IMG/VR virus record: IMGVR_UViG_3300029044_000314
Coordinates: 88,108-152,107 of that record
Length of the DNA: 64,000 bases
Origin: a virus
Reading direction: 5' to 3' (one strand)
Positions 3,443 to 46,014 of this stretch are shown here, one piece after another (within the stretch, counting starts at the first letter, position 1; each line of letters starts with the position of its first letter). Made by a program: the position numbers and the translations under genes. The notes beneath the pieces were generated by a model. It was not told the origin of the DNA. It did no database searches and was given only the letters and a program-made list of their open reading frames with translations.

Positions 3443-3814
3443 TCAGGCGAGCTTCGAATCGTAATCGTCGATGGGCTGGGTGAGCGTTTTGCCTTCCCTG
3501 ACCATTTTTTCTATGTCCTCGTAGTCGTCACAAGCCGCCCACAGTCCGAGGTCAGGGTTGAGATGATACATGGTTCCAGATTTCACACCTTCGTCAACAT
3601 AGAGTCCGTGACTGCAAGTGTTGTTGACGTTGGTGGGCTGTGGGTCTTGCTCGTAGTCATCGATGTTCCACGGGTCGCCTTCGGGCAACAGCACGTAGTC
3701 TCCGATGCCGTCGTGAATATCCCGTAGGCGCTGTTCCTGTTCGTCTTGGAGGTCTTGTTCCCTGTCGAGCATGAGGTTGATTTGATGTTCGATGCTGTTG
3801 AAGTAGTTGCTCAT
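3443..3814 (-). CDS. acidic hypothetical protein
   Basis: 123 aa, D/E-rich; motif copy at 3844-3866 about 30 nt upstream. Confidence 0.45.
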   Translation of the reverse strand: MSNYFNSIEHQINLMLDREQDLQDEQEQRLRDIHDGIGDYVLLPEGDPWNIDDYEQDPQPTNVNNTCSHGLYVDEGVKSGTMYHLNPDLGLWAACDDYEDIEKMVREGKTLTQPIDDYDSKLA

Positions 3815-23429: not shown

Positions 23430-23553
23430 TGTGTCTCCTTATAAAAATGACGGGCGTGTGGTTCCGTCGATAACACAATGATACCCCCAGTATTGTGAGG
23501 TCGGATACCAAAAGGTGCCGGTTGACAGCATCGTCAACCGGCACCCTTATAGG

Positions 23554-34650: not shown

Positions 34651-35712
34651 ATGGGAGGGGTTTTGGGAAAACATACGGCGAAACCGAAAGGCTTGGGAAA
34701 TCGAGCCATAGCGGGACTTCTCTGCCTAATCCTATCCGCCCTGTCCGGAACCATCCCATTCATTCTCATGATTTCGAACAGCAGCCAATCCAACCGGTTG
34801 ACCGACTCCCACGCGCAAGCCGTGGAAAACACTGACGTGAAACGAATCGCCCAAGAGTATGCGGACGCGCAAGCCTACAATCAACGCCTATACGAGGAAG
34901 GCCAGCCCATTCTTGGTGAGGCGGAAGACCCTTGGACAGGCGTCAACAAGTCCGAAACGGACAACACGTATCGGAAGCAACTATCCACCCCCAAGGATGG
35001 GGTCATGGCCACCATCAAATATCCACGCTTGGGCATCAACCTGCCCATCCGGCATGGCACGTCGCAAAACGTGTTGGCCGCTGGAGCCGGACACTTATAT
35101 GGTTCCAGTCTCCCCGTCGGCGGCAAGAACACGCATACTGTCATATCCGCGCACACGGGTTTGGCAGACCAGCTCATGTTCGACAAGCTACGAGGCTTCG
35201 GCAGTGAAGCCAAAAAAAGTGACGTCTTCTATCTGATAACCGCCGGACATACGCTCGCCTACAAGGTCACAAGCATTGATGTGGTAGACCCATCCGATTT
35301 CACCAAACTGAAAATCGTCGCCGGAAAAGACCTCGCCACACTCCTAACCTGCACGCCATACGGCATCAACAACAAGCGACTCCTAGTGACCGGCACGCGC
35401 ACCAGCATGCCGCACCCCGCACCCAGACCCGAAAACGCGCCGAAAGACCACACGAACCAATGGCTCATACTGTACGTCGGCGGCTTCTGGCTTGCGGTAA
35501 TCATCATCACCATTCTCATCATCCGTAGAAAAACCACGCAAAGAAGGAACACTAATGGGTATTCTCAAAAAGCATGTGGCACATCCGGTAGCATTATTGG
35601 CCGCAATCGCCACACTGTCATCCGGCCTGATATGCATGACCAATCCGGTAGCCTCTCCGAAAGCGCATGCGGACGAGTTGAAACCCGCATATGCTACTGC
35701 GAAAATCGTTAA
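34651..35712 (+). CDS. class C (pilus-associated) sortase
   Basis: N-terminal TM, catalytic TLLTCTPYG (TLXTC), C-terminal TM WLILYVGGFWLAVIIITILIIRRK; the ORF tail overlaps the adhesin start by 158 nt. Confidence 0.85.
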   Translation: MGGVLGKHTAKPKGLGNRAIAGLLCLILSALSGTIPFILMISNSSQSNRLTDSHAQAVENTDVKRIAQEYADAQAYNQRLYEEGQPILGEAEDPWTGVNKSETDNTYRKQLSTPKDGVMATIKYPRLGINLPIRHGTSQNVLAAGAGHLYGSSLPVGGKNTHTVISAHTGLADQLMFDKLRGFGSEAKKSDVFYLITAGHTLAYKVTSIDVVDPSDFTKLKIVAGKDLATLLTCTPYGINNKRLLVTGTRTSMPHPAPRPENAPKDHTNQWLILYVGGFWLAVIIITILIIRRKTTQRRNTNGYSQKACGTSGSIIGRNRHTVIRPDMHDQSGSLSESACGRVETRICYCENR

Positions 35713-38700
35713 GAAAGCCGACGGTACGGGGCATGGCACGAGTTCGCAAACGTTCGTGAATTCGAAGAACGGGTTCGCCACGGGCGATGATTCCCCTACC
35801 GATGGCGTGGTCGCATCCGGTGATACGGTCGAATATTCTCTCACGTTGAACTTCAACGCGGCGGGCAAGCGTACCATCAACGTGAAGTTCGACTTGGATG
35901 ACGCGCCGTATTTGCAGACTGCTGACGGTGGTGGCTTCTGCCAGCCGGGACAACTCGTCACCGCGAAGAAAAACAGTGACGGCTCCTGCTCCTACACGGT
36001 TCCAGCCGGTGGCGTGGAAACCATGACCCAAACCTTCTATCTGAAAGCAAAAGACACGGGAGGCTTGGTCAAGCCGGGTCAGATTCCGAAAATCGTCGTC
36101 GCCCGCGAAGGTGGAACGTCAACCACGTATCGTACGGATGAGCTGACTGTAGTATCCGCTCCGGCGGCTGACTTGGTCATTGACAATGGCGGCAATCCGG
36201 TGAAAGGCCAATACTCGTATGAGCATCGTACTTATTGGAGTCAGAACACCGATGCGACCGGTGATTTCACTATTCGTACCGACGCGTTGACCTATCCGGG
36301 TTATTCGTCCACGAAGGGCGCGTCCACCAGCATCGATTGGACTACCAAAGTGGATATTTCCGACTTCCCGCAGGGCACCGTGTGGACTGTAGGCGGTCAG
36401 CGGATTACCCGTAACAGTGATAAAGAACAGTATTTGACCGTATCCAGTGGCAAAAACGGTACGGCGGCGACAATCAGCTACAGGATTCCCGCCGGAACCG
36501 ACGCGCTCAAAAACATGAAAGAAGGAGACGTCAAATATTACGATGTCCACCTTGTTCCCGACGAAACCGTGTTCAGCGTCAAAGACGATAACGGCAACGC
36601 ACTGTTGAACATGGGCAAGGGCGGCGAACCCGGCTGGAACATTGGACGGGACAAGAGCACCTACAACAAGGATACGGGTGCCCGCGTCGGCTACCCGTAC
36701 GCGAACAATGACTGGTCACGAGCCATCATCCAACGGCTCAAGCCGACTCCAGCTGGCAAGATTCCACTGTTCGGCAAAGGACTGCAACGTCCTAACACTG
36801 CGTCCAAGACCATGTTCGACAAGGAGAATCTGACGTTCGACGCCGCCGAAGGCAAAGCCGACATCTACCATTACTATTCCGACGGTTCCGGCGACACCGT
36901 GTCCCGTGGAACGCAAGTCAAAACCATTTTGGAAATGTATGCGGCGAACGTTACTGCGGACAAGCTTAAAAACACTACGCCGACCATGCAGGATGAGTGG
37001 GATAATACGCGCATGCGGTGGGATGGAAGCTTGGAAGTCACCCAGAACGGTGCTCCGGTTTCCGACTACAAAGTTCAATGGGCTGATAGCAAAGACAATT
37101 GGCATGACGGGGAACCATCCGACACGGACGCTCCGAACGTCAAGAAGATTCGGGTGACGTTCAACCCCGACACGTTGACTTTAGGAAAGGGTGCGCCGAA
37201 CGTTCAGGTCACGTTCAACACGCTCGCCATAGCCGACGTGTCCAAAGGCAATGTGGAAGCTTTGGATACGCTGACCGCATGGCTTACCGAAGACGATAAG
37301 GCGAGCGTCACCAATTGGGTGTGGATTGCCAAGCCGGTAGACCCGACCACCAGTATCGACATCAGTCTGAAAGCCTACGATGGTGAAGGCAATCAAGTGT
37401 ATGCGAACAACAGTTCCAATCACCCGTCCGGAAGCGCAGTCGATTTGACTCCCGGCATGCGAGTGGATTATACGGTCACGGAACAGTTGCGCACCATTCT
37501 CCTGTCCAATACAAGCATGACGCCGACCATCACGGTGCCGAAACCGAAAGGCTTGTACAATCCGACCTGTGATGATTCGTTCTGGCAGATGAAAGTGGAC
37601 GGGAATAATCTCGTGTTCACGCCACGTTCTGGCAAAGTCACGCCGGAAGTAGACCGTATGGGGTCGGCCACTTTGCCTGACCTGCATTTCAGTGGCATCG
37701 TATCCAATCTCGCCACCGGGACTGTGACCGCCAGTGCGAATATGAGCGTGGACGTTGACGAGAACGGCGCATTGCAAGCCCAAACCATCAAAAGCAATAC
37801 GCCCAGCGTCCCATTCCCCGTCTCCAATGCGGAAACCAACAGTGGCATCATGCGTGTGAAGACCACGAAGGCTGAAATCGGTGACCCGCTTACTTGGGAG
37901 TTCAACGTGTACGGCAAGGGCGGCGGTCACACCGGCACCATGGATAGCATGCTACTGCTTCCTGCGAATGGTGATGAGAAGTACGTGCAGGACAAGCTGG
38001 TCGAATATGAGCGTGGATACAGCAACTATCATGGCTCCTACGAACTGACCCAGCCCGTCACGGTCAATATGGACAATTCGACCAGTACGACCGTCTACTA
38101 TTCAACCACCACCGGAAAGAAGTCGGATAATCCAGCTGACTACGAGTGGAAGACATGGGATGAATTGTCCGCCATCGAGAAGAAGAACATCACCGCCATC
38201 CGACTGACCAGCACTGTCGTCGCGTCTGACGATAAACTGTCCTATTCGGCGGTGAACGGCACCATCACGCTCATCCCATCCGACAATGTGAAAGACGACA
38301 AGTACACGCTGTGGCTTGGCCGCAACTATTATTCCGACGCTTCCGACAAACCGGCGGGCAACCAGCCGTGGCCTGACGTGGCGAAGATAGTGTCCGGTAG
38401 TATCAGCGGTACCGTCTGGTGGGATAAGGATGAGAACACGCTCATCGGAGACGGTGAGGAACGTATCGAAGGAGTGGAAGTCACCCTCGGCAAGCAGGAT
38501 TCAAGCGGCGGCTGGCAGACCGTCAAAACGGTGAAGACCGACAAGGACGGCCATTACGAGTTCGACCTGCTCCACTCCGGCACCTACCGCACTTCGGTGA
38601 AACGCAACACTGGCACCAGTACGGGTGATGGCGTGCAGACGCAGGTCAAAACCTACTACAACAAGCTTGAAAACGTGACGAACACGCGCAGCTGGTCGAA

Positions 38701-40942
38701 CAAAATCAAATCCAACGCGAAAGACACGTCCGACGACATCCACCTAGGCATCGGCGCAGACCAGAAGAACGTGGACTACGGTTACGCCAAGCCAGACCCG
38801 AAAGCCACCGTGGACAAAACCGTCACCGGCACCAGTTGCACTGATACGAAATGCGTCATCAACTGGGATGTCAAAGTACAGAATTCTGGCACTAGTCGTT
38901 TTGACACGTCCAGTGTCGTTTCTGACCGTATGAGCGCTGATGTGCATGATGTTTCCGCTACCGCCGGTACGGTTTCCATCGAGTCTGGTGGCGCGAAACA
39001 GGTTGCTACGAGTGGCGACCATAAGTTCGTGCTCACCAATGAGGGCTTGTTGTATGCGTGGGGGAACAACCAGTATGGTCAGCTTGGTTTCAAGCCTGAC
39101 ACGACGAATTCTGCCACTCCAATGAACGTAAACAAGCCGACCATCATCAACGGTAGTTGGCTGAAAGTCGCCGCCGGAGGCAAACACTCCGCCGCCATCA
39201 GCACGGACGGCCACCTGTACACGACCGGTTGGAATGGTAGCGGCCAATTGGGTACGGGTGATACGGACAATCGTGACCAGTGGACGGAAGTCGCTTCAGA
39301 TAAGACATTCATTGACGTGGCATGCGGCAACCAGTTCACCGTCGCCATCGCAAGCGACGGCACTTTGTGGGGTGTTGGAAACGCTGTAAGCTATCAGAAC
39401 TATGCGACTTGGACGCAAATCGGTTCTGATGTCAAGTTCACTCAACTCAGTGCAAGCATGGACGGTTTCATCGCATTGAACACATCCGGCAGATACCTGT
39501 ACTACGGTACAGATGTTCGGGGGCAGGGCGCTGGCGGTTATACGCAAGTCGCCGCCGCGTTCGGTCGAATGTATGCGTTGAAAAATGATGGGACGGTGAT
39601 TCAGGTTGCCACAACCTATGATGACTCTTATTCGCCTAACTTGTCCGGTTTGAAGGACATTGTGAAAATCAGCGGCGGATACAATACCTTGTACGCCATC
39701 GACAAGAACCAGCACTTGTGGTCTATGGGTTGGAATGGTGACGGCCAGTTGGCTAACGGTCAGACCGGTAGTGGCACGTATTGGACGGACGGTTGGACGA
39801 GTGACAATAAGGATATTGTCAACACTCCGTTCGATACGAACATTATTGCATCCGACGTGGCGGGTGGCGACCGTGACGTGCTCATTCTTAGCAAGCAGGT
39901 CATGATTGCGGGCTCCGACCCGTATGGTGACGGTAAGACGGGTGGCGCGCGTTCCACCGGTTTGAAAGGCATGGCCGTATCGTCCGACCCAACCGCCGTA
40001 CCTGTCGAACCATCGAGCGAAACCACTGAGAACGAGTTGACTACCCGCACATACAATCTGCCATACAGCATTAAGCCGGGCGGCTATGTCATCTACCATT
40101 TCACCGGCACCGTTGACCGTGATATTACGGATACGACAAAGTGGGAACTGTCCGATATTGACAAGTGGGTGAAAGAGCATACGAAGACCATTCTCAACCA
40201 AGCATGGTTCGACTCCGAACACACACCATACTCGGGCACGCCACACGCAAGCGGCAAAACCAAGCCGAACACTCCGGACGCTACGAAACTGGATGCCAAC
40301 ACGAATGATGTGACCGGCAATCCGACCTGCCGCACCGACACGGACTATACGGAGGAAGGACGTCAACACTGGTTCAGCACGTCCGATGAGGACTCCTGCG
40401 ACCAAGTCGGCACCATCATCACCCCAACCACAACCGCGAAGAACCTCGGTTCCATCAGCGGCCTATATTGGGACGACACGAACAAGAACGGCATCCAAGA
40501 TGAAGGTGAGAACACGCATTTCGCCGGTCAGACGGTCATTCTGACTGACGAGAACGGCAAACAGTTGGCAACCACCAAGACCGACGAGGATGGCAAGTAC
40601 ATTTTCGAACGTCTGGACGCGAACGGCAACAAATACCGTATCCAATTCACCAAAGTGAACCACCGGGACTTCACCACGCCGGATGCGGGAGACAAGACCC
40701 CTGCGACGGATGGAAGCTCCACTGATTCGGACGCTTACACGGACGAAGACAACAAGCTGACCATCACCCTCACCCAAGATGCTCCAACCAAGGAGCATGT
40801 GGATGCGGGTGTCCTGCCTGAAACATGGTTGGCGACCATGCCGCACACAGGCATGGGATTGCTGTTGCCGCTCCTCATGCTCGTCAGCATCAGCGGACTC
40901 GTCACGGCAATCATCCTCCTACGAAAGAAGGAAGAACAGTGA
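35555..40942 (+). CDS. giant sortase-substrate surface adhesin (RCC1-like beta-propeller + CnaB/SdrD-B repeats)
   Basis: 1795 aa; strong RBS aagaaggaac; signal peptide; RCC1 repeats (YAWGNNQYGQLG, TTGWNGSGQLGTGD, SMGWNGDGQLANG); two CnaB/SdrD-B-type domains (GTVWWDKDEN..., GLYWDDTNKNGIQDEGE...); C-terminal LPETW...MPHTG + TM + RKKEEQ sorting-signal-like end. Confidence 0.8.
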   Translation: MGILKKHVAHPVALLAAIATLSSGLICMTNPVASPKAHADELKPAYATAKIVKKADGTGHGTSSQTFVNSKNGFATGDDSPTDGVVASGDTVEYSLTLNFNAAGKRTINVKFDLDDAPYLQTADGGGFCQPGQLVTAKKNSDGSCSYTVPAGGVETMTQTFYLKAKDTGGLVKPGQIPKIVVAREGGTSTTYRTDELTVVSAPAADLVIDNGGNPVKGQYSYEHRTYWSQNTDATGDFTIRTDALTYPGYSSTKGASTSIDWTTKVDISDFPQGTVWTVGGQRITRNSDKEQYLTVSSGKNGTAATISYRIPAGTDALKNMKEGDVKYYDVHLVPDETVFSVKDDNGNALLNMGKGGEPGWNIGRDKSTYNKDTGARVGYPYANNDWSRAIIQRLKPTPAGKIPLFGKGLQRPNTASKTMFDKENLTFDAAEGKADIYHYYSDGSGDTVSRGTQVKTILEMYAANVTADKLKNTTPTMQDEWDNTRMRWDGSLEVTQNGAPVSDYKVQWADSKDNWHDGEPSDTDAPNVKKIRVTFNPDTLTLGKGAPNVQVTFNTLAIADVSKGNVEALDTLTAWLTEDDKASVTNWVWIAKPVDPTTSIDISLKAYDGEGNQVYANNSSNHPSGSAVDLTPGMRVDYTVTEQLRTILLSNTSMTPTITVPKPKGLYNPTCDDSFWQMKVDGNNLVFTPRSGKVTPEVDRMGSATLPDLHFSGIVSNLATGTVTASANMSVDVDENGALQAQTIKSNTPSVPFPVSNAETNSGIMRVKTTKAEIGDPLTWEFNVYGKGGGHTGTMDSMLLLPANGDEKYVQDKLVEYERGYSNYHGSYELTQPVTVNMDNSTSTTVYYSTTTGKKSDNPADYEWKTWDELSAIEKKNITAIRLTSTVVASDDKLSYSAVNGTITLIPSDNVKDDKYTLWLGRNYYSDASDKPAGNQPWPDVAKIVSGSISGTVWWDKDENTLIGDGEERIEGVEVTLGKQDSSGGWQTVKTVKTDKDGHYEFDLLHSGTYRTSVKRNTGTSTGDGVQTQVKTYYNKLENVTNTRSWSNKIKSNAKDTSDDIHLGIGADQKNVDYGYAKPDPKATVDKTVTGTSCTDTKCVINWDVKVQNSGTSRFDTSSVVSDRMSADVHDVSATAGTVSIESGGAKQVATSGDHKFVLTNEGLLYAWGNNQYGQLGFKPDTTNSATPMNVNKPTIINGSWLKVAAGGKHSAAISTDGHLYTTGWNGSGQLGTGDTDNRDQWTEVASDKTFIDVACGNQFTVAIASDGTLWGVGNAVSYQNYATWTQIGSDVKFTQLSASMDGFIALNTSGRYLYYGTDVRGQGAGGYTQVAAAFGRMYALKNDGTVIQVATTYDDSYSPNLSGLKDIVKISGGYNTLYAIDKNQHLWSMGWNGDGQLANGQTGSGTYWTDGWTSDNKDIVNTPFDTNIIASDVAGGDRDVLILSKQVMIAGSDPYGDGKTGGARSTGLKGMAVSSDPTAVPVEPSSETTENELTTRTYNLPYSIKPGGYVIYHFTGTVDRDITDTTKWELSDIDKWVKEHTKTILNQAWFDSEHTPYSGTPHASGKTKPNTPDATKLDANTNDVTGNPTCRTDTDYTEEGRQHWFSTSDEDSCDQVGTIITPTTTAKNLGSISGLYWDDTNKNGIQDEGENTHFAGQTVILTDENGKQLATTKTDEDGKYIFERLDANGNKYRIQFTKVNHRDFTTPDAGDKTPATDGSSTDSDAYTDEDNKLTITLTQDAPTKEHVDAGVLPETWLATMPHTGMGLLLPLLMLVSISGLVTAIILLRKKEEQ

Positions 40943-40953
40943 AAGGAACAAGA

Positions 40954-41886
40954 ATGGGCAAACACGCCACCCAATCACACGGGAGCCGTCACATGGTTCG
41001 GCGGCTCCTCGCCACCCTCGCCATCATGAGCGCGGTCTGCGGCGGCTTCCTCACCGGTAGTGCAATAGCCGCCGAACCAGCCAAATGCAATACTGGCGTG
41101 GACAAGGTTTGCTACGCGGGCTATAACGCGGCGGGATTGAAACAGATTGCCGACGATTTAAGCGAGAAAGGCAAAGGAAGCACATACTATGCCGCAATGG
41201 AAAAGAACCTGACCGACGGGGTCAAAGGCACGCTCACCCTATCGGACGGCTCGAACCTCCCATTCCGACTCATCGGCATCCTCCACGACGACAAAGCCGA
41301 CGGAAGTGGACGAAAAGCAGGATTGACGTTCATGGCTTGGAACGCGTTACCGAAAGCGTATGCCATGAACAATAGTCACACCAATAATGGCGGCTGGCGT
41401 GACAGTCTTCTCCGCAATCAGATGAACAATGGTGAAATCTGGAACCAATTCCCAACCGACTTCCAAAACAACGTCACAACCGTGCTGAAACAAACCAACA
41501 ACATGGCCTACGGAAGCACAGTCGGTTCAAGCGCGTCAGCCACGGCAGACAAAGTATGGCTCGTCTCCTACCGTGAACTCGTACCAACCTTATACGATGG
41601 TTGGAAGACCTCTGGTGGTTTCCAAGCGTTGAATCAGGAGGGAAGCCAATACGAGTATTTCCACGGTAAGGTGACAAATAACTGGTCGGGTAATAGCATT
41701 CTCTCCGGCATCTACAAGACCGTTTCCGGTTCCACTCCTCTTGGTGCTTACGTCAACTATTGGTGGGAGCGTTCGCCCGACCCGAACAGCGGCAGCTTTT
41801 TCCTCCAAGTGTACTCGGACGGCGGCCCCAGCTACTACTACGGTGCCAGCTATCGCTACTCCGTTGTCCCCGCTTTCTCCTTCTAA
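40954..41886 (+). CDS. secreted DGR target (variable) protein
   Basis: 310 aa from the ATG after RBS gaaaggaaca; Sec signal peptide MVRRLLATLAIMSAVCGGFLTGSAIA; the last ~50 codons are the VR (…YVNYWWERSPDPNSGSFFLQVYSDGGPSYYYGASYRYSVVP). Confidence 0.75.
   Translation: MGKHATQSHGSRHMVRRLLATLAIMSAVCGGFLTGSAIAAEPAKCNTGVDKVCYAGYNAAGLKQIADDLSEKGKGSTYYAAMEKNLTDGVKGTLTLSDGSNLPFRLIGILHDDKADGSGRKAGLTFMAWNALPKAYAMNNSHTNNGGWRDSLLRNQMNNGEIWNQFPTDFQNNVTTVLKQTNNMAYGSTVGSSASATADKVWLVSYRELVPTLYDGWKTSGGFQALNQEGSQYEYFHGKVTNNWSGNSILSGIYKTVSGSTPLGAYVNYWWERSPDPNSGSFFLQVYSDGGPSYYYGASYRYSVVPAFSF
41719..41872 (+). repeat. DGR variable repeat (VR)
   Basis: 154 bp matching the TR at 42517-42670; about 24 mismatches, all at positions where the TR has A. 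Confidence 0.85.
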
Positions 41887-41898
41887 TCCCCAATCCTT

Positions 41899-41925
41899 GG
41901 GTGGTGGGGTTCATCCCCACCACCC
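41899..41925 (+). promoter_or_regulatory. GC-rich hairpin downstream of the VR (candidate DGR target-recognition stem-loop)
   Basis: ggtggtgggg-ttcat-ccccaccacc, 10-bp stem, about 27 nt after the end of VR homology; no counterpart after the TR. Confidence 0.5.
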
Positions 41926-41958
41926 CTCCAAACTCAAATCTCACACAAAAGGAGTCCT

Positions 41959-42474
41959 ATGACGGTTCCCGCAAGCAAACGTACAAAAGCCAAAAGCGAA
42001 TATGCGAATCAGGCCAGAATCGTGCTCTTGGCTACCAGAAATCTGTTCCGCAAATGGCCTAAAAGCCGTAACTGCATTGAAACCGTGCATGTCATGCATA
42101 TCGCCTACGAAATGTACTCCTCCGCCTACAGTGCCGACATCATTTATGCAAGCACTGTAGAAGAGCATGAGATGAAACTGCAACTGTTGTGCAAGGCCCA
42201 AGGCATGCTGAACTCACTCTCCGGTCTTGTGGACGATTGGATGGAGTTTCCTCCACGGGAAAAAGACTTGGAAGCCTACAGGAAATATCCGGAAGGCGAC
42301 CCCAGATACAATCCCGTCGTCAAGGAGAAGAAATTCGTGAACTATGCGGGAACCCTCTACAAGGCGATGGGCGTGTTCACCGGAGCCGTCAAGTATGAGC
42401 GAGACCAGTTGAAGAAAGCTAAAAACGCCGAGTCGAAAACGAACACTATAATGGATACTCGGGCGCAAGCCTAA
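41959..42474 (+). CDS. DGR accessory protein (Avd-like by position)
   Basis: 171-aa helical basic ORF located between the target gene and the TR, which is the canonical avd position. Confidence 0.4.
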   Translation: MTVPASKRTKAKSEYANQARIVLLATRNLFRKWPKSRNCIETVHVMHIAYEMYSSAYSADIIYASTVEEHEMKLQLLCKAQGMLNSLSGLVDDWMEFPPREKDLEAYRKYPEGDPRYNPVVKEKKFVNYAGTLYKAMGVFTGAVKYERDQLKKAKNAESKTNTIMDTRAQA

Positions 42475-42516
42475 AATATAATTGAACAAAATCGGCCATA
42501 TCCAAACTATGGTGAC

Positions 42517-42670
42517 ACCGTTTCCGGTTCCACTCCTCTTGGTGCTAACAACAACAATTGGTGGGAGCGTTCGCCCGACCCGAACAACAACAACAATTTC
42601 CTCCAAGTGAACTCGAACGGCGACCCCAGCTACAACAACAATGCCAACAATCGCTACTCCGTTGTCCCCG
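42517..42670 (+). repeat. DGR template repeat (TR)
   Basis: Non-coding copy of the VR in which 15 codon positions are AAC/AAT and one is GAC; lies about 200 bp upstream of the RT gene. Confidence 0.85.
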
Positions 42671-42864
42671 ATTCCTCTTACCAAAAACTAACATCAGATA
42701 GGCCAGTAGCCCAATGGGTGAAAGCCTCCCGAAGGGGAAGGGGATATGGTCGAATGCGCGGCCCCTCGAAAAATGGGTTGCGTGTGAAATAGGTTGAGGG
42801 AGATATTAAGACTGTCGGAAACGACGGATACTCGCCCCTTAAGCTGGGCGTCCAACATCATTGC

Positions 42865-44094
42865 ATGTCTTGGGTTGTTGCCGACGACCTGCCCTCAACC
42901 ATTCTTTTCTCTTTCCCTAGTGAAGGAAGCATTAAAATCGTGAATGCGAGTCAAAGACGTAGAAGACGCCAACGCAGACTGCAACAACGCTCGGATGATA
43001 AGTACAGGAAGCTCCACCGTTACATCGACTTCCAACAAACATTCGGATTCGACGCGCTCTACCAAGCCGCAAGAAAATGCAAACGCGGCGTCACATGGAA
43101 AAACACAGTGTTGAACTTCGACAATAGGCGTGCCGTCAACTGTTGGAAACTCGCCCAAGAATTAGAGGACGGCACATACAAGAAGAGAGCGCCAATCCGA
43201 TTCGACATTTCCGAACGAGGCAAACTCCGCCACATCAGCGCGGTATCCTTCCGAGACCGGGTGGTGCAACGCGCCTTATGCGACAACAGTCTCGTCCCCA
43301 TCGTGGAAAGCCAACTGATATACGATAATGCGGCAAGCCTACCGAAACGTGGAACATCGTTCGCCCGAAAACGGTTCGAACTACACTATAAGCGGGCTTT
43401 GGGCAAATGGGAGCATCCGTATGCTGTCATCTTCGACTGTGCCAACTATTTCGGAAGTATCAGCTCCCAACGAGCGTTCGATATGATTTCCACCCTGTAC
43501 CGGAGCATCGCCCGCACCGGACGGGAGAAGCAGGATGTGGAACGGATTCTAACCGTATTGAGAATCTTCGTATTGGACGAACCTCACTTGGGTTTAGGCA
43601 ATCAGACAAGCCAAACCATGGCTATCTGGTATTTGAACAAGGTTGACCACTGGTGCATGTCGCAAGGATTCTACGGACGGTATATGGATGATGCCTACTG
43701 TTTCTGCAAGAATCGTGAACAGGCCGAACGTGTGCTGGCCGGTTACGAGCGGCATGTCAATCAATTGGGATTGCGGTTGAACAAGCGCAAGACCCGCATA
43801 GTGGACTGTCGCACCGGTCAACTCACATTCCTGAAACGCGTATACAGCGTACAGGATGACGGCAGTATTCTTATCCGCATGCACCATAAGGCGTTGCGTG
43901 CAAGCCGACGGCATGCGCGTAACCTTATCCGCTCATATGATGGCGTGCATGTGGGATTGCGGACAGTTCAGGATTCTTGGACGAGCCATGAGAGCACACT
44001 GTCGGGTCTAACTCACCGTCGTGGACTGTGCGCTCGGGAGAAAGCGTGGTATCGGAGGCATTGTGAAATGCGGAAGCTGGCTTTTCACCCGTGA
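42865..44094 (+). CDS. DGR reverse transcriptase
   Basis: 409 aa; RT motifs AVIFDCANYFGSI, DGR-diagnostic LGLGNQTSQ ([ILV]GxxxSQ), catalytic YGRYMDDAYCF (YMDD). Confidence 0.85.
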   Translation: MSWVVADDLPSTILFSFPSEGSIKIVNASQRRRRRQRRLQQRSDDKYRKLHRYIDFQQTFGFDALYQAARKCKRGVTWKNTVLNFDNRRAVNCWKLAQELEDGTYKKRAPIRFDISERGKLRHISAVSFRDRVVQRALCDNSLVPIVESQLIYDNAASLPKRGTSFARKRFELHYKRALGKWEHPYAVIFDCANYFGSISSQRAFDMISTLYRSIARTGREKQDVERILTVLRIFVLDEPHLGLGNQTSQTMAIWYLNKVDHWCMSQGFYGRYMDDAYCFCKNREQAERVLAGYERHVNQLGLRLNKRKTRIVDCRTGQLTFLKRVYSVQDDGSILIRMHHKALRASRRHARNLIRSYDGVHVGLRTVQDSWTSHESTLSGLTHRRGLCAREKAWYRRHCEMRKLAFHP

Positions 44095-44363
44095 TTTCCG
44101 GACTTTCCAGATTGGTGGAGGGGTGTAATCTGCTGGAAGCGGTGGCGCAGAATCTTCCGCTTCCTCAATCGTTTGGATGAGATTTCGTGAGGCTTGGATT
44201 GTATCGTATTTCACTCGGCATGCTTGTCGGCTAGTTTTTCTTCCCAGCTTGGTGTTACACTGGGTTTACTTGCATTTCCTTCCTCGGGACTTCGCCCATG
44301 TGGGGCTTTAGAGGTTATCAGCGCATTGGTCAGAGTATGCCGTTTGAGTGAAAGGAAACTGTC

Positions 44364-44975
44364 ATGGCAGGTTTTGATGATATTACGGTCACTCGCAGTG
44401 ATGTCCGTTTGAAGGTTAAGGCTCCGTATAATCCGTTGTTCGCACGTCGCTCCCGCGCGTTGGGTGGAACGTTTGATGACAAGTTGAAGACTTGGACGTT
44501 CGATATGCGTGTGGAAAGGCTGGTGTTCGAAGCTTTAGACAAATATTTCTGGTGGCATAAGGGCGTGGACGCTGAAAAGCGTGTCACAGTCACCATCGAC
44601 CCCTACGACTACTTGTACGCGTACTCCAAGCAGGATAGCGACATTATCTGGTTCGCTGGTCGAATCCTAGTCGAAAAATATCAGCCCGACCGTCCACCGC
44701 GCATGATGCCGAATGTGGCTCTCGTGGATGGCATGTGGCCTAAAACCGGCTTGTATACGGGGTTGAATCTCAGTCCCGACAAACTCCGATTATTGGTATG
44801 GGATGTTCCCACCAGTTTTCTGGAACGACTGTCGTCCGGCAAGTATGAGTTGTCTGAGCCGGATGGTGACACGTTGACTGCGGTTGACGTTCGTATTCAG
44901 GCTGTGGAGGAACGGTTAGGCCGGTTGAGGGAACTCCGAACCCGACTCGCCTCTAATAGTGAGGATGGTGAATGA
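44364..44975 (+). CDS. hypothetical protein
   Basis: 203-aa ORF. Confidence 0.45.
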   Translation: MAGFDDITVTRSDVRLKVKAPYNPLFARRSRALGGTFDDKLKTWTFDMRVERLVFEALDKYFWWHKGVDAEKRVTVTIDPYDYLYAYSKQDSDIIWFAGRILVEKYQPDRPPRMMPNVALVDGMWPKTGLYTGLNLSPDKLRLLVWDVPTSFLERLSSGKYELSEPDGDTLTAVDVRIQAVEERLGRLRELRTRLASNSEDGE

Positions 44976-45979
44976 TGCTCTCCGTGCCGATTAATGGTCA
45001 AGTCCAGTCGCGTCTCATTCCGCCCACGTTCGTGGAAGACAACATCAGCGACATGTTCAAGGCTGTGGACGCCGGACACAATATCGTCGTGACGGCAGTG
45101 GACGAGTACGGTAATCGAACCAGTATTACCACGCCGGATAATGTGAATCATGACATGCTGGGGCGTCCTCTCGAATTCGCGTCCCATCCCGTACTGATGC
45201 GGAATGTGCGCCGTTGGATGGTTTGGCTGTTGCAAGCGCAATACTGCAAGGATTACAAGTGGGATACGAACAGGCTTGGAGGTTGGATGGAAGTGTTGGG
45301 TTTACCAGCCGACCTTGATATTCCCGTAACGGAGGAACATTTACGCGTGTTGAAGCCTGTGTTTAACAAGGATGATGCCGACCCGTATCGGCTTGTCGCA
45401 CGATACGACAAGCAACATTATGCTTCATGCACCCTCAGCACTCTCATACGGTTAGCCGAACAAACCACGCCGAACTATGCCCTGAACAATCCCGCCCGCT
45501 GGTGTCAAACCGACCGATACCGCAAACTCAGCATCCAACCCAATCCGAAAGAAAACTGGGACGGAATGGACAGGGTACGCGACTGTTGGAGCGGATGCGA
45601 ATGGGCATACCCCGCATTGGAACGCTACTATAATCCGATTCGACTATTACGCGACGAATACCGGCGGGGAGGACTACCTGAAACCTTCCACTATCCAATA
45701 CACACGACAAGAGGAGAATACCGGTTGGCGAAAGGACAAATCAGCCCCCACGCAACAATCCTCCTCAACGGCAAGCCGGTAGGACTCATGTTCAGCGACG
45801 ATTGCGAGGAACCATTCACCGACCGGATACCACCCGAATGGTGCGCCACACCCTTACCGGAAAACTATAAGACCACGCCACTCAACCGAAACATTCCCGT
45901 AAACGGCGAATTCAAACCATCATTCCAGCAAGCCATGCTGGGATTCGTGGAATGGTATGAGAAAACGCACAAGGGATAG
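44972..45979 (+). CDS. hypothetical protein
   Basis: 335-aa ORF, ATGA-coupled to the upstream gene. Confidence 0.45.
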   Translation: MMLSVPINGQVQSRLIPPTFVEDNISDMFKAVDAGHNIVVTAVDEYGNRTSITTPDNVNHDMLGRPLEFASHPVLMRNVRRWMVWLLQAQYCKDYKWDTNRLGGWMEVLGLPADLDIPVTEEHLRVLKPVFNKDDADPYRLVARYDKQHYASCTLSTLIRLAEQTTPNYALNNPARWCQTDRYRKLSIQPNPKENWDGMDRVRDCWSGCEWAYPALERYYNPIRLLRDEYRRGGLPETFHYPIHTTRGEYRLAKGQISPHATILLNGKPVGLMFSDDCEEPFTDRIPPEWCATPLPENYKTTPLNRNIPVNGEFKPSFQQAMLGFVEWYEKTHKG

Positions 45980-45988
45980 CAAAAAGAA

Positions 45989-46014
45989 AAGCCCCTCGAC
46001 TGAGGGGCTTTTTC
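45989..46014 (+). terminator. intrinsic (bidirectional) terminator
   Basis: aagcccctc-gact-gaggggctt followed by tttt; an A-run precedes the hairpin. Confidence 0.7.

Follow-up and report, generated by a model that had tools for sequence, protein, structure and literature searches.

The DNA analysed here is a 64-kb window of a viral genome, in which a perfect inverted repeat (41899-41925) stands between the target gene of a diversity-generating retroelement (DGR) and the next open reading frame. The question raised by this locus is whether the inverted repeat is the signal that marks the target DNA for the DGR, or owes its presence to another cause, such as a structure acting in RNA, a protein-binding site, or chance. 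On the evidence described below, we assign a probability of about 0.8 to the reading that it is the cis-acting target-recognition hairpin (or cruciform) of a DGR in a large (~200 kb) uncultivated phage, and we infer that the hairpin forms in vivo and raises the efficiency of retrohoming.

An active DGR around the inverted repeat

The locus around the inverted repeat is a canonical, active DGR, in which adenine-directed diversification is ongoing. The target gene (40954-41886, + strand), delimited from the ORF list, Pfam, and the start context, ends with the TAA stop codon at 41884-41886; its mechanical ORF spans 40825-41886, and the likely start is the ATG at 40954, preceded by an AAAGGAA ribosome-binding site and located just 3′ of the TGA (40940-40942) of the upstream gene, which encodes a 1795-aa RCC1/SdrD-B-repeat protein. 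The C-terminal domain of the target protein (residues 172-352) belongs to Pfam DUF6273 (E = 2.3e-13); DUF6273-like domains of phage DGR targets have been described as resembling the C-type lectin fold (PMC10743442). The same target gene order is found in two related contigs, L018 and L118.

The 3′ end of the target gene is formed by the 168-nt variable repeat (VR; 41719-41886, + strand), a direct repeat 86% identical to the template repeat (TR; 42517-42684, + strand), which is rich in AAC codons and includes the IMH* (42657-42684). The 19 mismatches between VR and TR within 41749-41851 are all opposite TR adenines and all at codon positions 1 or 2, and the adenine-templated variable positions of the VR extend from 41734 to 41858, the last mutagenised A. 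When the VRs of nine near-identical phages (RTs 98-100% identical) were compared in the same register, 35 of the 42 variable columns fell at TR adenines, with the TRs themselves nearly invariant. Three of the remaining variable columns are VR positions matching the TR polymorphisms at 42645, 42648, and 42660, which recur there; such mirroring of TR polymorphisms in the VR is direct evidence for TR-to-VR transfer. No second VR was found in the window.

Downstream of the TR lies the gene for a 409-aa reverse transcriptase (RT; 42865-44094, + strand), identified by its RVT_1 domain and by the PHROG reverse transcriptase family (E = 5e-56). Its best match in the PDB is 8ub7, a 328-residue RT chain (E = 8e-13), and it shares 29% identity with Brt of Bordetella phage BPP-1 (E = 4e-17), its LGNQTSQ and YMDD motifs matching IGSLTSQ and YMDD of Brt. 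The SQ motif is, as far as is known, specific to DGRs. In the spacer between TR and RT, a conserved purine-rich motif, GAAGGGGAAGGGGATATGGTCGA (42731-42753, + strand), pairs with the 3′ end of the TR (IMH*) in the RNA fold and is kept in L016 and L018 despite differing surroundings. By analogy to the BPP-1 spacer, as summarised in PMC12875486, this motif probably belongs to the spacer segment of the DGR RNA by which the RT is recruited and primed. A scan of 40000-45000 against Rfam (E ≤ 1) matched 0 families, thus neither an intron nor a ribozyme.

The position corresponding to avd is occupied by an ORF of 171 aa (41959-42474, + strand), drawn from the ORF list and conserved in relatives. This accessory ORF has 0 matches in Pfam even at E = 10 and no informative match in PHROGs or the PDB by sequence and profile searches, and shows no similarity to BPP-1 Bbp7/Avd by BLASTP or hhalign. 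A single-sequence AlphaFold model is all-helical and of low confidence (pLDDT 63), and a Foldseek search with this model returned generic helical bundles only. These sequence, profile, and fold searches, all negative or uninformative, provide no link between this ORF and Avd.

A search of IMG/VR with the RT retrieved 14 contigs of 13-217 kb carrying RTs 98-100% identical, from which the window can be assigned to a large uncultivated phage; the RT identities found in IMG/VR then show a gap from 98% to 36%. Among the 14, IMGVR_UViG_3300045988_187575 has a fused repeat and seems to be devoid of both hairpin and accessory gene. No RT relatives were found in GTDB genomes, and there was no match in GenBank phages.

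The 3′ limit of TR-to-VR transfer can be placed from comparative data alone. The proximal block of the IMH, CTCCGTTGTCCCCG (41859-41872, + strand), comprises 14 nt that are identical in VR and TR, contain no A, and are 71% GC; the A at 41858, still mutagenised in relatives, lies outside it. The distal block, CTTTCTCCTTCTAA (41873-41886, + strand), which includes the stop codon, differs from its TR version, ATTCCTCTTACCAA, at 5 of 14 positions, and the nine closest phages share the same five differences. The VR-side distal block is near-invariant, with one substitution in L116, among relatives down to 67% RT identity, and the TR-side block, itself undergoing small changes, stays different from it; the diverged IMH/IMH* pair is likewise kept in L016 and L018. 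A C/T polymorphism at TR position 42660 is mirrored at VR position 41862 in L011 and L013, showing that transfer reaches at least 41862. Together with the fixed differences that begin at 41873, this co-conversion confines the 3′ end of transfer to the interval from 41862 to 41873. The original prediction had expected an IMH/IMH* pair where the last ~14 nt of repeat homology give way to divergence, and precisely this was found, as an identical A-free block of 14 nt, after which five fixed differences distinguish VR from TR within the next 14 nt; the string that it quoted for those last nucleotides, cgctactccgttgtccccg, is 19 nt long, however, and its last 14 nt, CTCCGTTGTCCCCG, are the A-free block.

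The hairpin and the flanks of the two repeats

The inverted repeat, which is assigned to neither strand, consists of the arms GGGTGGTGGGG (41899-41909) and CCCCACCACCC (41915-41925), enclosing a 5-nt loop, TTCAT (41910-41914; ATGAA in antisense). The arms form 11 Watson-Crick pairs, nine G-C and two T-A, with 0 mismatches. The hairpin starts 12 nt 3′ of the end of the target gene and VR (41886) and 26 nt beyond the end of perfect VR/TR identity (41872), and the start codon of the accessory ORF follows 33 nt 3′ of it. The stem-loop originally predicted from the letters is thus real, but its stem is 11 bp rather than 10 bp long, the predicted interval already spanning the eleventh pair. The accompanying spacing of about 27 nt from the end of homology agrees with the 26 nt counted from 41872, yet the distance is 12 nt if the weaker VR/TR alignment is followed to its end at 41886. 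A G-quadruplex in the G-rich arm was considered and dropped on inspection, neither strand having four runs of at least three G.

When the 81-nt context of the inverted repeat was folded as single-stranded DNA, the predicted structure was exactly the hairpin 41899-41925 (-14.7 kcal/mol), and 0 of 200 dinucleotide shuffles folded as well. The complementary strand folds into the mirror hairpin (z = -4.2), so that a cruciform is geometrically possible. Folding of both flanks, the check proposed with the original prediction, gave z = -5.2 for the VR flank and z = +0.9 for the TR flank (42658-42738), where the structure is not significant. No perfect stem of at least 5 bp occurs within 80 nt 3′ of the TR; the nearest stem, at about 42756-42783, has a 10-nt loop and needs three G-T wobbles, and its regions fold no differently from shuffles. 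The predicted absence of a hairpin after the TR is thereby borne out, and an equivalent TR-flank hairpin is lacking both in the window and in 35 of 35 related DGR classes described below. The suggestion that this asymmetry fits directional retrohoming accordingly gains support from the identity of the locus as a DGR, from the conservation of the hairpin, and from the asymmetry itself, and may well be correct.

Conservation of the hairpin among related DGRs

Sequences for comparison were taken from IMG/VR contigs and from ENA/Logan contigs whose RTs are 80% and 67% identical. The loop TTCAT and the inner 7 bp of the stem (GGTGGGG/CCCCACC) are invariant at 67-100% RT identity, whereas the intergenic flanks, from the stop codon to the start of the accessory ORF, diverge substantially over the same range. 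The window stem, GGGTGGTGGGG/CCCCACCACCC, is replaced by GGTGGGTGGGG/CCCCACCCACC in L007 and L011, by GGGGGTGGGG/CCCCACCCCC in L006, L016, and L116, by GGGGGGTGGGG/CCCCACCCCCC in L018, and by the 8-bp GGGGTGGG/CCCACCCC in L012, stem lengths in close relatives ranging from 8 to 12 bp. In an alignment of nine sequences, three outer pairs change on both sides (five cells) and 0 pairs change on one side only; all changes keep Watson-Crick pairs, none passing through G-U. Paired cells amount to 93.9% of this alignment, vs 60-72% when the 3′ partners are slid by one to three columns, and the covariation score of the stem was reached by 0 of 500 shuffles. The covariation is supportive but not conclusive because the sequences are few (nine) and closely related, and it is limited to the three outer pairs, the invariant inner stem saying nothing for or against pairing. 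Loss or disruption of the stem in homologous loci had been named in advance as an outcome adverse to the hairpin; instead, the stem is kept, with compensatory changes, at 67-100% RT identity.

Farther away, the window hairpin itself is not kept. In L120 (RT 47% identical), a long G/C hairpin with imperfect pairing lies some 50 nt 3′ of the stop codon. The syntenic 203-kb contig L118 (RT 41% identical) carries a 10-bp stem that is richer in AT, encloses a loop of 13 nt, and resembles a terminator in having a T-run. No VR was found within the DNA examined for L098-L101 (RT 45-50% identical), and the RTs of L124-L127 are decayed or rearranged and lack a target.

The asymmetry between the two repeats was surveyed in fetched loci with RT identities of 30-100%, in which TR/VR pairs were detected automatically and the highest-scoring perfect hairpin within 80 nt 3′ of each VR or TR was compared with all other 80-nt windows of the same locus; loci were grouped into 35 classes distinct by hairpin sequence. 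A hairpin within the top 5% of its own locus background was found in the VR flank of 27 of the 35 classes and in the TR flank of 0 of 35, counts that are descriptive because the classes are not phylogenetically independent. The median hairpin score was 16 for VR flanks vs 7 for TR flanks. As a positive control, the same script was applied to BPP-1, where it recovered the published hairpin, GCGGGGCC-GAAA-GGCCCCGC, at a distance of 4 nt from the VR but detected none in the TR flank.

Among 26 distinct VR-flank hairpins with stems of at least 7 bp, a GAAA loop was present in one, and the loops of the other 25 can be described as pyrimidine-rich and 5-6 nt long. CTTGT and CTGTGT each occur in four distinct hairpins with unrelated stems, TTCAT in four that are variants of the stem of the window clade, and TTGTAT in two, and the loops GTTCAT, TTATAT, TTTAT, CTCGT, CTTTGT, CCTTGT, CCGTGT, CTTTGC, CTGTGC, TTCTT, and TTTTT were found in one hairpin each. 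TTCAT fits a loose 5-nt pattern, YTYRT. The recurrence of one loop on different stems follows the principle known from BPP-1, in which the stem is kept as a structure and the loop as a sequence, but with another loop. We propose tentatively, at somewhat less than even odds, that the DGR clade with RTs 30-100% identical uses conserved, pyrimidine-rich loops of 5-6 nt (TTCAT, CTTGT, TTTAT, and CTCGT, approximating YTYRT, together with CTGTGT and TTGTAT) on unrelated stems, in place of the GRNA tetraloop. In the part of the literature covered, no publication on such DGR loops was found. If the loop is a point of contact, its recognition partner, be it the RT, the accessory protein, or the DGR RNA, would have co-diverged. 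As a separate observation, the accessory protein of the window is not recognisable as Avd. If the proposal is true, annotation rules requiring GRNA (MyDGR) would miss most hairpins in this clade, which may help to explain why hairpins have been reported in only a minority of DGRs. Since 25 of the 26 strong hairpins of related phage DGRs, as well as the window hairpin, fail the rule of a 7-10-bp stem with a GRNA loop, a loop-agnostic definition would be more sensitive.

Readings of the hairpin and comparison with known systems

An alternative that we regard as unlikely is that the hairpin acts in RNA, as a 3′ stabiliser or processing site of the mRNA, or as a terminator or attenuator devoid of a U-tract between the target gene and the accessory-TR-RT operon; the VR/TR asymmetry would then simply follow from the location of the VR, unlike that of the TR, at the end of a gene. 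The hairpin is indeed strong when folded as RNA (z = -3.6) and lies in the transcribed region between target and accessory genes, with a stop codon 12 nt 5′ and a start codon 33 nt 3′ of it, but there is no T-run 3′ of it on either strand (the + strand tail is CTCCAAACTC) and a consensus terminator scan made no call at 41899-41925, on which grounds a terminator was rejected as the main explanation. In L118, the equivalent position is indeed occupied by a stem that has a T-run and resembles a terminator, and Wu et al. mention terminators 3′ of the IMH in a minority of DGRs (PMC5758913), whereas a T-rich tail follows the VR-flank hairpin in just one of the 35 classes surveyed. Hairpins are frequent where genes end, as the target gene does with the VR, and the 80 nt 3′ of all 44 gene ends predicted in the window were therefore scored as well. 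A strong hairpin lies within 80 nt of the stop codon at only two of them, that of the DGR target gene being the strongest, so that a position at a gene end is insufficient as an explanation and a gene-end artefact was likewise rejected. The other one, at 45987-46012 after the ORF 44972-45979, is flanked by A and T runs in the manner of a bidirectional terminator, showing that at least one classical terminator is present in the window; a scan of the 64 kb for perfect stems of at least 9 bp with loops of 3-8 nt yielded just three stems of at least 11 bp, at 23514, 41899, and 45987. In addition, the invariance of the loop would be unexpected for a simple terminator, and the stem changes, in a small sample, are all of the Watson-Crick type without G-U, as a structure formed by both strands of DNA requires.

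Less probable still is a role of the palindrome as the duplex binding site of a dimeric protein, such as one that regulates the accessory-TR-RT operon. Its location upstream of the accessory ORF and the sequence invariance of the inner 7 bp and loop at 67-100% RT identity would suit an operator, but the outer stem changes in a compensatory manner that does not preserve its sequence, a search for sigma-70-like promoters made no call beside the hairpin, and related DGRs carry unrelated stems with similar loops in the same place, which points to structure plus loop as the conserved feature and not to an operator. That the inverted repeat is a functionless product of chance is the least credible of these readings and is practically excluded. 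An exact 19-mer scan of viral contigs did find the 19-nt core of the hairpin, besides the relatives, in one unrelated phage of 40% GC (L106/L107), near which no DGR was detected; this occurrence was judged coincidental and indicates that such sequences can arise independently. However, no shuffle among 200 folds as well as the hairpin, the number of matches to the core expected by chance in the 64-kb window, where no second copy was found, is 0, the hairpin is kept while its flanks drift, and hairpins are systematically enriched after VRs and not after TRs.

Under the favoured reading as a target-recognition hairpin, retrohoming would proceed as follows. The RT (42865-44094), probably assisted by the accessory protein (41959-42474), would reverse-transcribe the TR-spacer RNA (42517 to about 42864) into cDNA, misincorporating nucleotides opposite template adenines. 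The cDNA would then replace the VR (41719-41872) in the target gene, with the 3′ limit inside the IMH at 41862-41873. The presence of a hairpin 12 nt past the VR and the difference between IMH and IMH* would make the VR the recipient and leave the TR untouched. Following the BPP-1 model, the hairpin may extrude on single-stranded or supercoiled DNA and keep the end of the VR open to the cDNA, and its loop may contact a component of the DGR.

The existence of the hairpin and the VR/TR asymmetry are textbook features of DGRs and add little in general; for the present locus, the hairpin supplies the last element in the annotation of an active DGR from a large uncultivated phage. Efficient homing in BPP-1 depends on an 8-bp G/C inverted repeat immediately 3′ of the VR; disruption of its stem abolishes function and compensatory changes restore it, whereas its GAAA loop is under constraint with regard to sequence as well as size, a swap to CTTT or an enlargement by 2 nt having abolished activity (Guo et al. 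2011, PMC3240598). In a 2026 reconstitution in E. coli, deletion of the stem-loop impaired retrohoming and editing severely, though not completely, and it was proposed that the cDNA anneals to a transiently single-stranded target, preferably the lagging-strand template, with the stem-loop prolonging the open state (PMC12875486). The present locus resembles BPP-1 in the gene order of target, accessory gene, TR, and RT, in the G/C-rich inverted repeat after the stop codon, 3′ of VR and IMH (12 nt here vs 4 nt in BPP-1), in the absence of a hairpin after TR and IMH*, and in the conservation of the stem as a structure and of the loop as a sequence. The layout of the IMH is also alike, a 14-nt G/C-rich block shared by VR and TR, the counterpart of the (GC)14 element of BPP-1, preceding a block with five VR/TR differences; the BPP-1 IMH consists of GGGGCGCGCGGCGT and a subsequent stretch of 20 nt in which VR and TR differ five times in this alignment (PMC5758913). 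Unlike BPP-1, the accessory protein has no detectable similarity to Avd, and the RT is only 29% identical to Brt. The stem differs as well, being 11 bp here vs 8 bp in BPP-1 and 7-10 bp in the consensus, which is a minor deviation because BPP-1 tolerates the insertion of 2 bp into its stem with little effect (PMC3240598). The loop departs further, as a 5-nt TTCAT stands in the place of the 4-nt GAAA (GRNA) that is functionally required in BPP-1.

Eight phage DGRs compared by Guo et al. have 7-10-bp stems and GRNA tetraloops, 4-34 bp from the VR (PMC3240598), and MyDGR applies exactly these figures as its rule (PMC6602519). Loops other than GRNA are already documented in nanoarchaeal DGRs, whose hairpins have trinucleotide GRA loops (Paul et al. 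2015, PMC4372165); the loop described here is, by comparison, pyrimidine-rich and 5 nt long. As a G/C-rich stem-loop just after a gene end, the hairpin also resembles Rho-independent terminators and the targets of group IIC introns, a parallel drawn by Guo et al. for introns that recognise terminator stems in single-stranded DNA (PMC3240598), but no T/U tract follows it, unlike in Rho-independent terminators. In this respect, it matches the G/C-rich repeats after the IMH that Wu et al. (2018) found in 34% of 372 DGRs, which are thus no universal feature and mostly not terminators (PMC5758913); the corresponding proportion among the RT-related phage classes surveyed here is 27 of 35, the criteria and samples of the two surveys being different. 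Altogether, position, G/C content, asymmetry, absence of a T-run, and conservation agree with the known hairpins while stem length and loop depart from the published rules, placing the inverted repeat in the broad kind of G/C-rich post-IMH repeats and not in the strict GRNA-tetraloop class. It is thus most likely a further example of the well-known target-site hairpin of DGRs, with a stem length and a loop outside the published consensus.

Template repeat, spacer and accessory reading frame

The spacer between the template repeat (TR, 42517-42684) and the reverse transcriptase gene (RT, 42865-44094) carries a purine-rich motif, GAAGGGGAAGGGGAYATGGTCGA, at 42731-42753, which is conserved in the window and in two loci from other contigs, L016 and L018, despite the differing neighboring sequence. 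In the predicted RNA fold, the motif pairs with the 3' end of the TR (IMH*), and it is followed by a stem, the sequence of which differs in L018. GAAGGGGAAGGGGAYATGGTCGA is probably part of the spacer structure within the DGR RNA. Within the TR itself, position 42577 is G in the window versus A in the TRs of eight close relatives, and the counterpart of this position in the variable repeat (VR), 41779, is also G; therefore, one diversifiable position has seemingly been lost from the window copy.

The avd position is occupied by an accessory ORF (41959-42474), and neither Avd nor anything in Pfam or the PDB is detectably similar to it. Its product is predicted to be all-helical, and a counterpart is kept in the relatives, with identity down to 37%. 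This ORF may represent an uncharacterized family of DGR accessory proteins.

Upstream gene and other inverted repeats

Immediately upstream of the DGR target gene lies the gene for a 1795-aa protein (35555-40942) with RCC1, SdrD-B-like, and SpaA/prealbumin-like repeats, and this synteny is kept in L018 and in L118 (ENA scaffold_23, 203 kb). The C-terminal end of the protein, consisting of TMPHTG, a hydrophobic stretch, and RKKEEQ in succession, resembles in sequence an LPXTG-type sortase sorting signal, and the putative signal hints at a Gram-positive host.

The longest perfect inverted repeat in the window is one of 13 bp at 23514-23545 (GGTGCCGGTTGAC-AGCATC-GTCAACCGGCACC). Directly past the ORF at 44972-45979, an 11-bp perfect hairpin, AAAAGCCCCTC-GACT-GAGGGGCTTTT (45987-46012), is flanked on both sides by A and T runs and looks like a bidirectional intrinsic terminator.

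Relatives with an altered hairpin or DGR

L118 belongs to a large-phage relative that is syntenic with the window and has an RT of 41% identity. At the site past its VR (2300-2380), TTTCTTATTT comes after an AT-richer stem of 10 bp whose loop measures 13 nt, an arrangement with the shape of a classical terminator and not of the G/C short-loop hairpin. In L005/L022 (IMGVR_UViG_3300045988_187575, 204 kb), there is one hybrid repeat (locus coordinates about 3653-3813), in which the TR directly continues the target gene, with 798 bp absent that comprise the distal part of the IMH, the hairpin, and the accessory ORF. Such a repeat would be the expected product of either VR × TR recombination or assembly collapse, and the DGR should be dead if the hybrid is real. 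The DGR is decayed in L124-L126 (ENA contigs of up to 104 kb), where the RT is broken into ORFs of 243 and 89 aa, an Mrr-type nuclease gene stands upstream at the expected target position, and a TR-like fragment of 75 nt is found downstream of the RT.

Hairpin core and loops beyond the window

An identical copy of the 19-nt central part of the window hairpin, GGTGGGGTTCATCCCCACC, is located 9 nt past a stop codon in L106/L107 (IMGVR_UViG_3300044723_009897 and 3300044674_003590), from an unrelated phage of 40% GC. Neither an RT nor a TR/VR pair was found in the L106/L107 DNA at hand, and the match is probably a coincidence.

Among the related phage DGR loci L032-L097, the hairpins located 5-32 nt past each VR have pyrimidine-rich loops of 5-6 nt, and CTTGT, CTGTGT, TTGTAT, and other loops sit on unrelated stems. 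The canonical GAAA tetraloop occurs only in L088; the rule of the annotation software MyDGR, a 7-10 bp stem with a GRNA tetraloop as in BPP-1, would therefore overlook nearly all hairpins of this RT clade.
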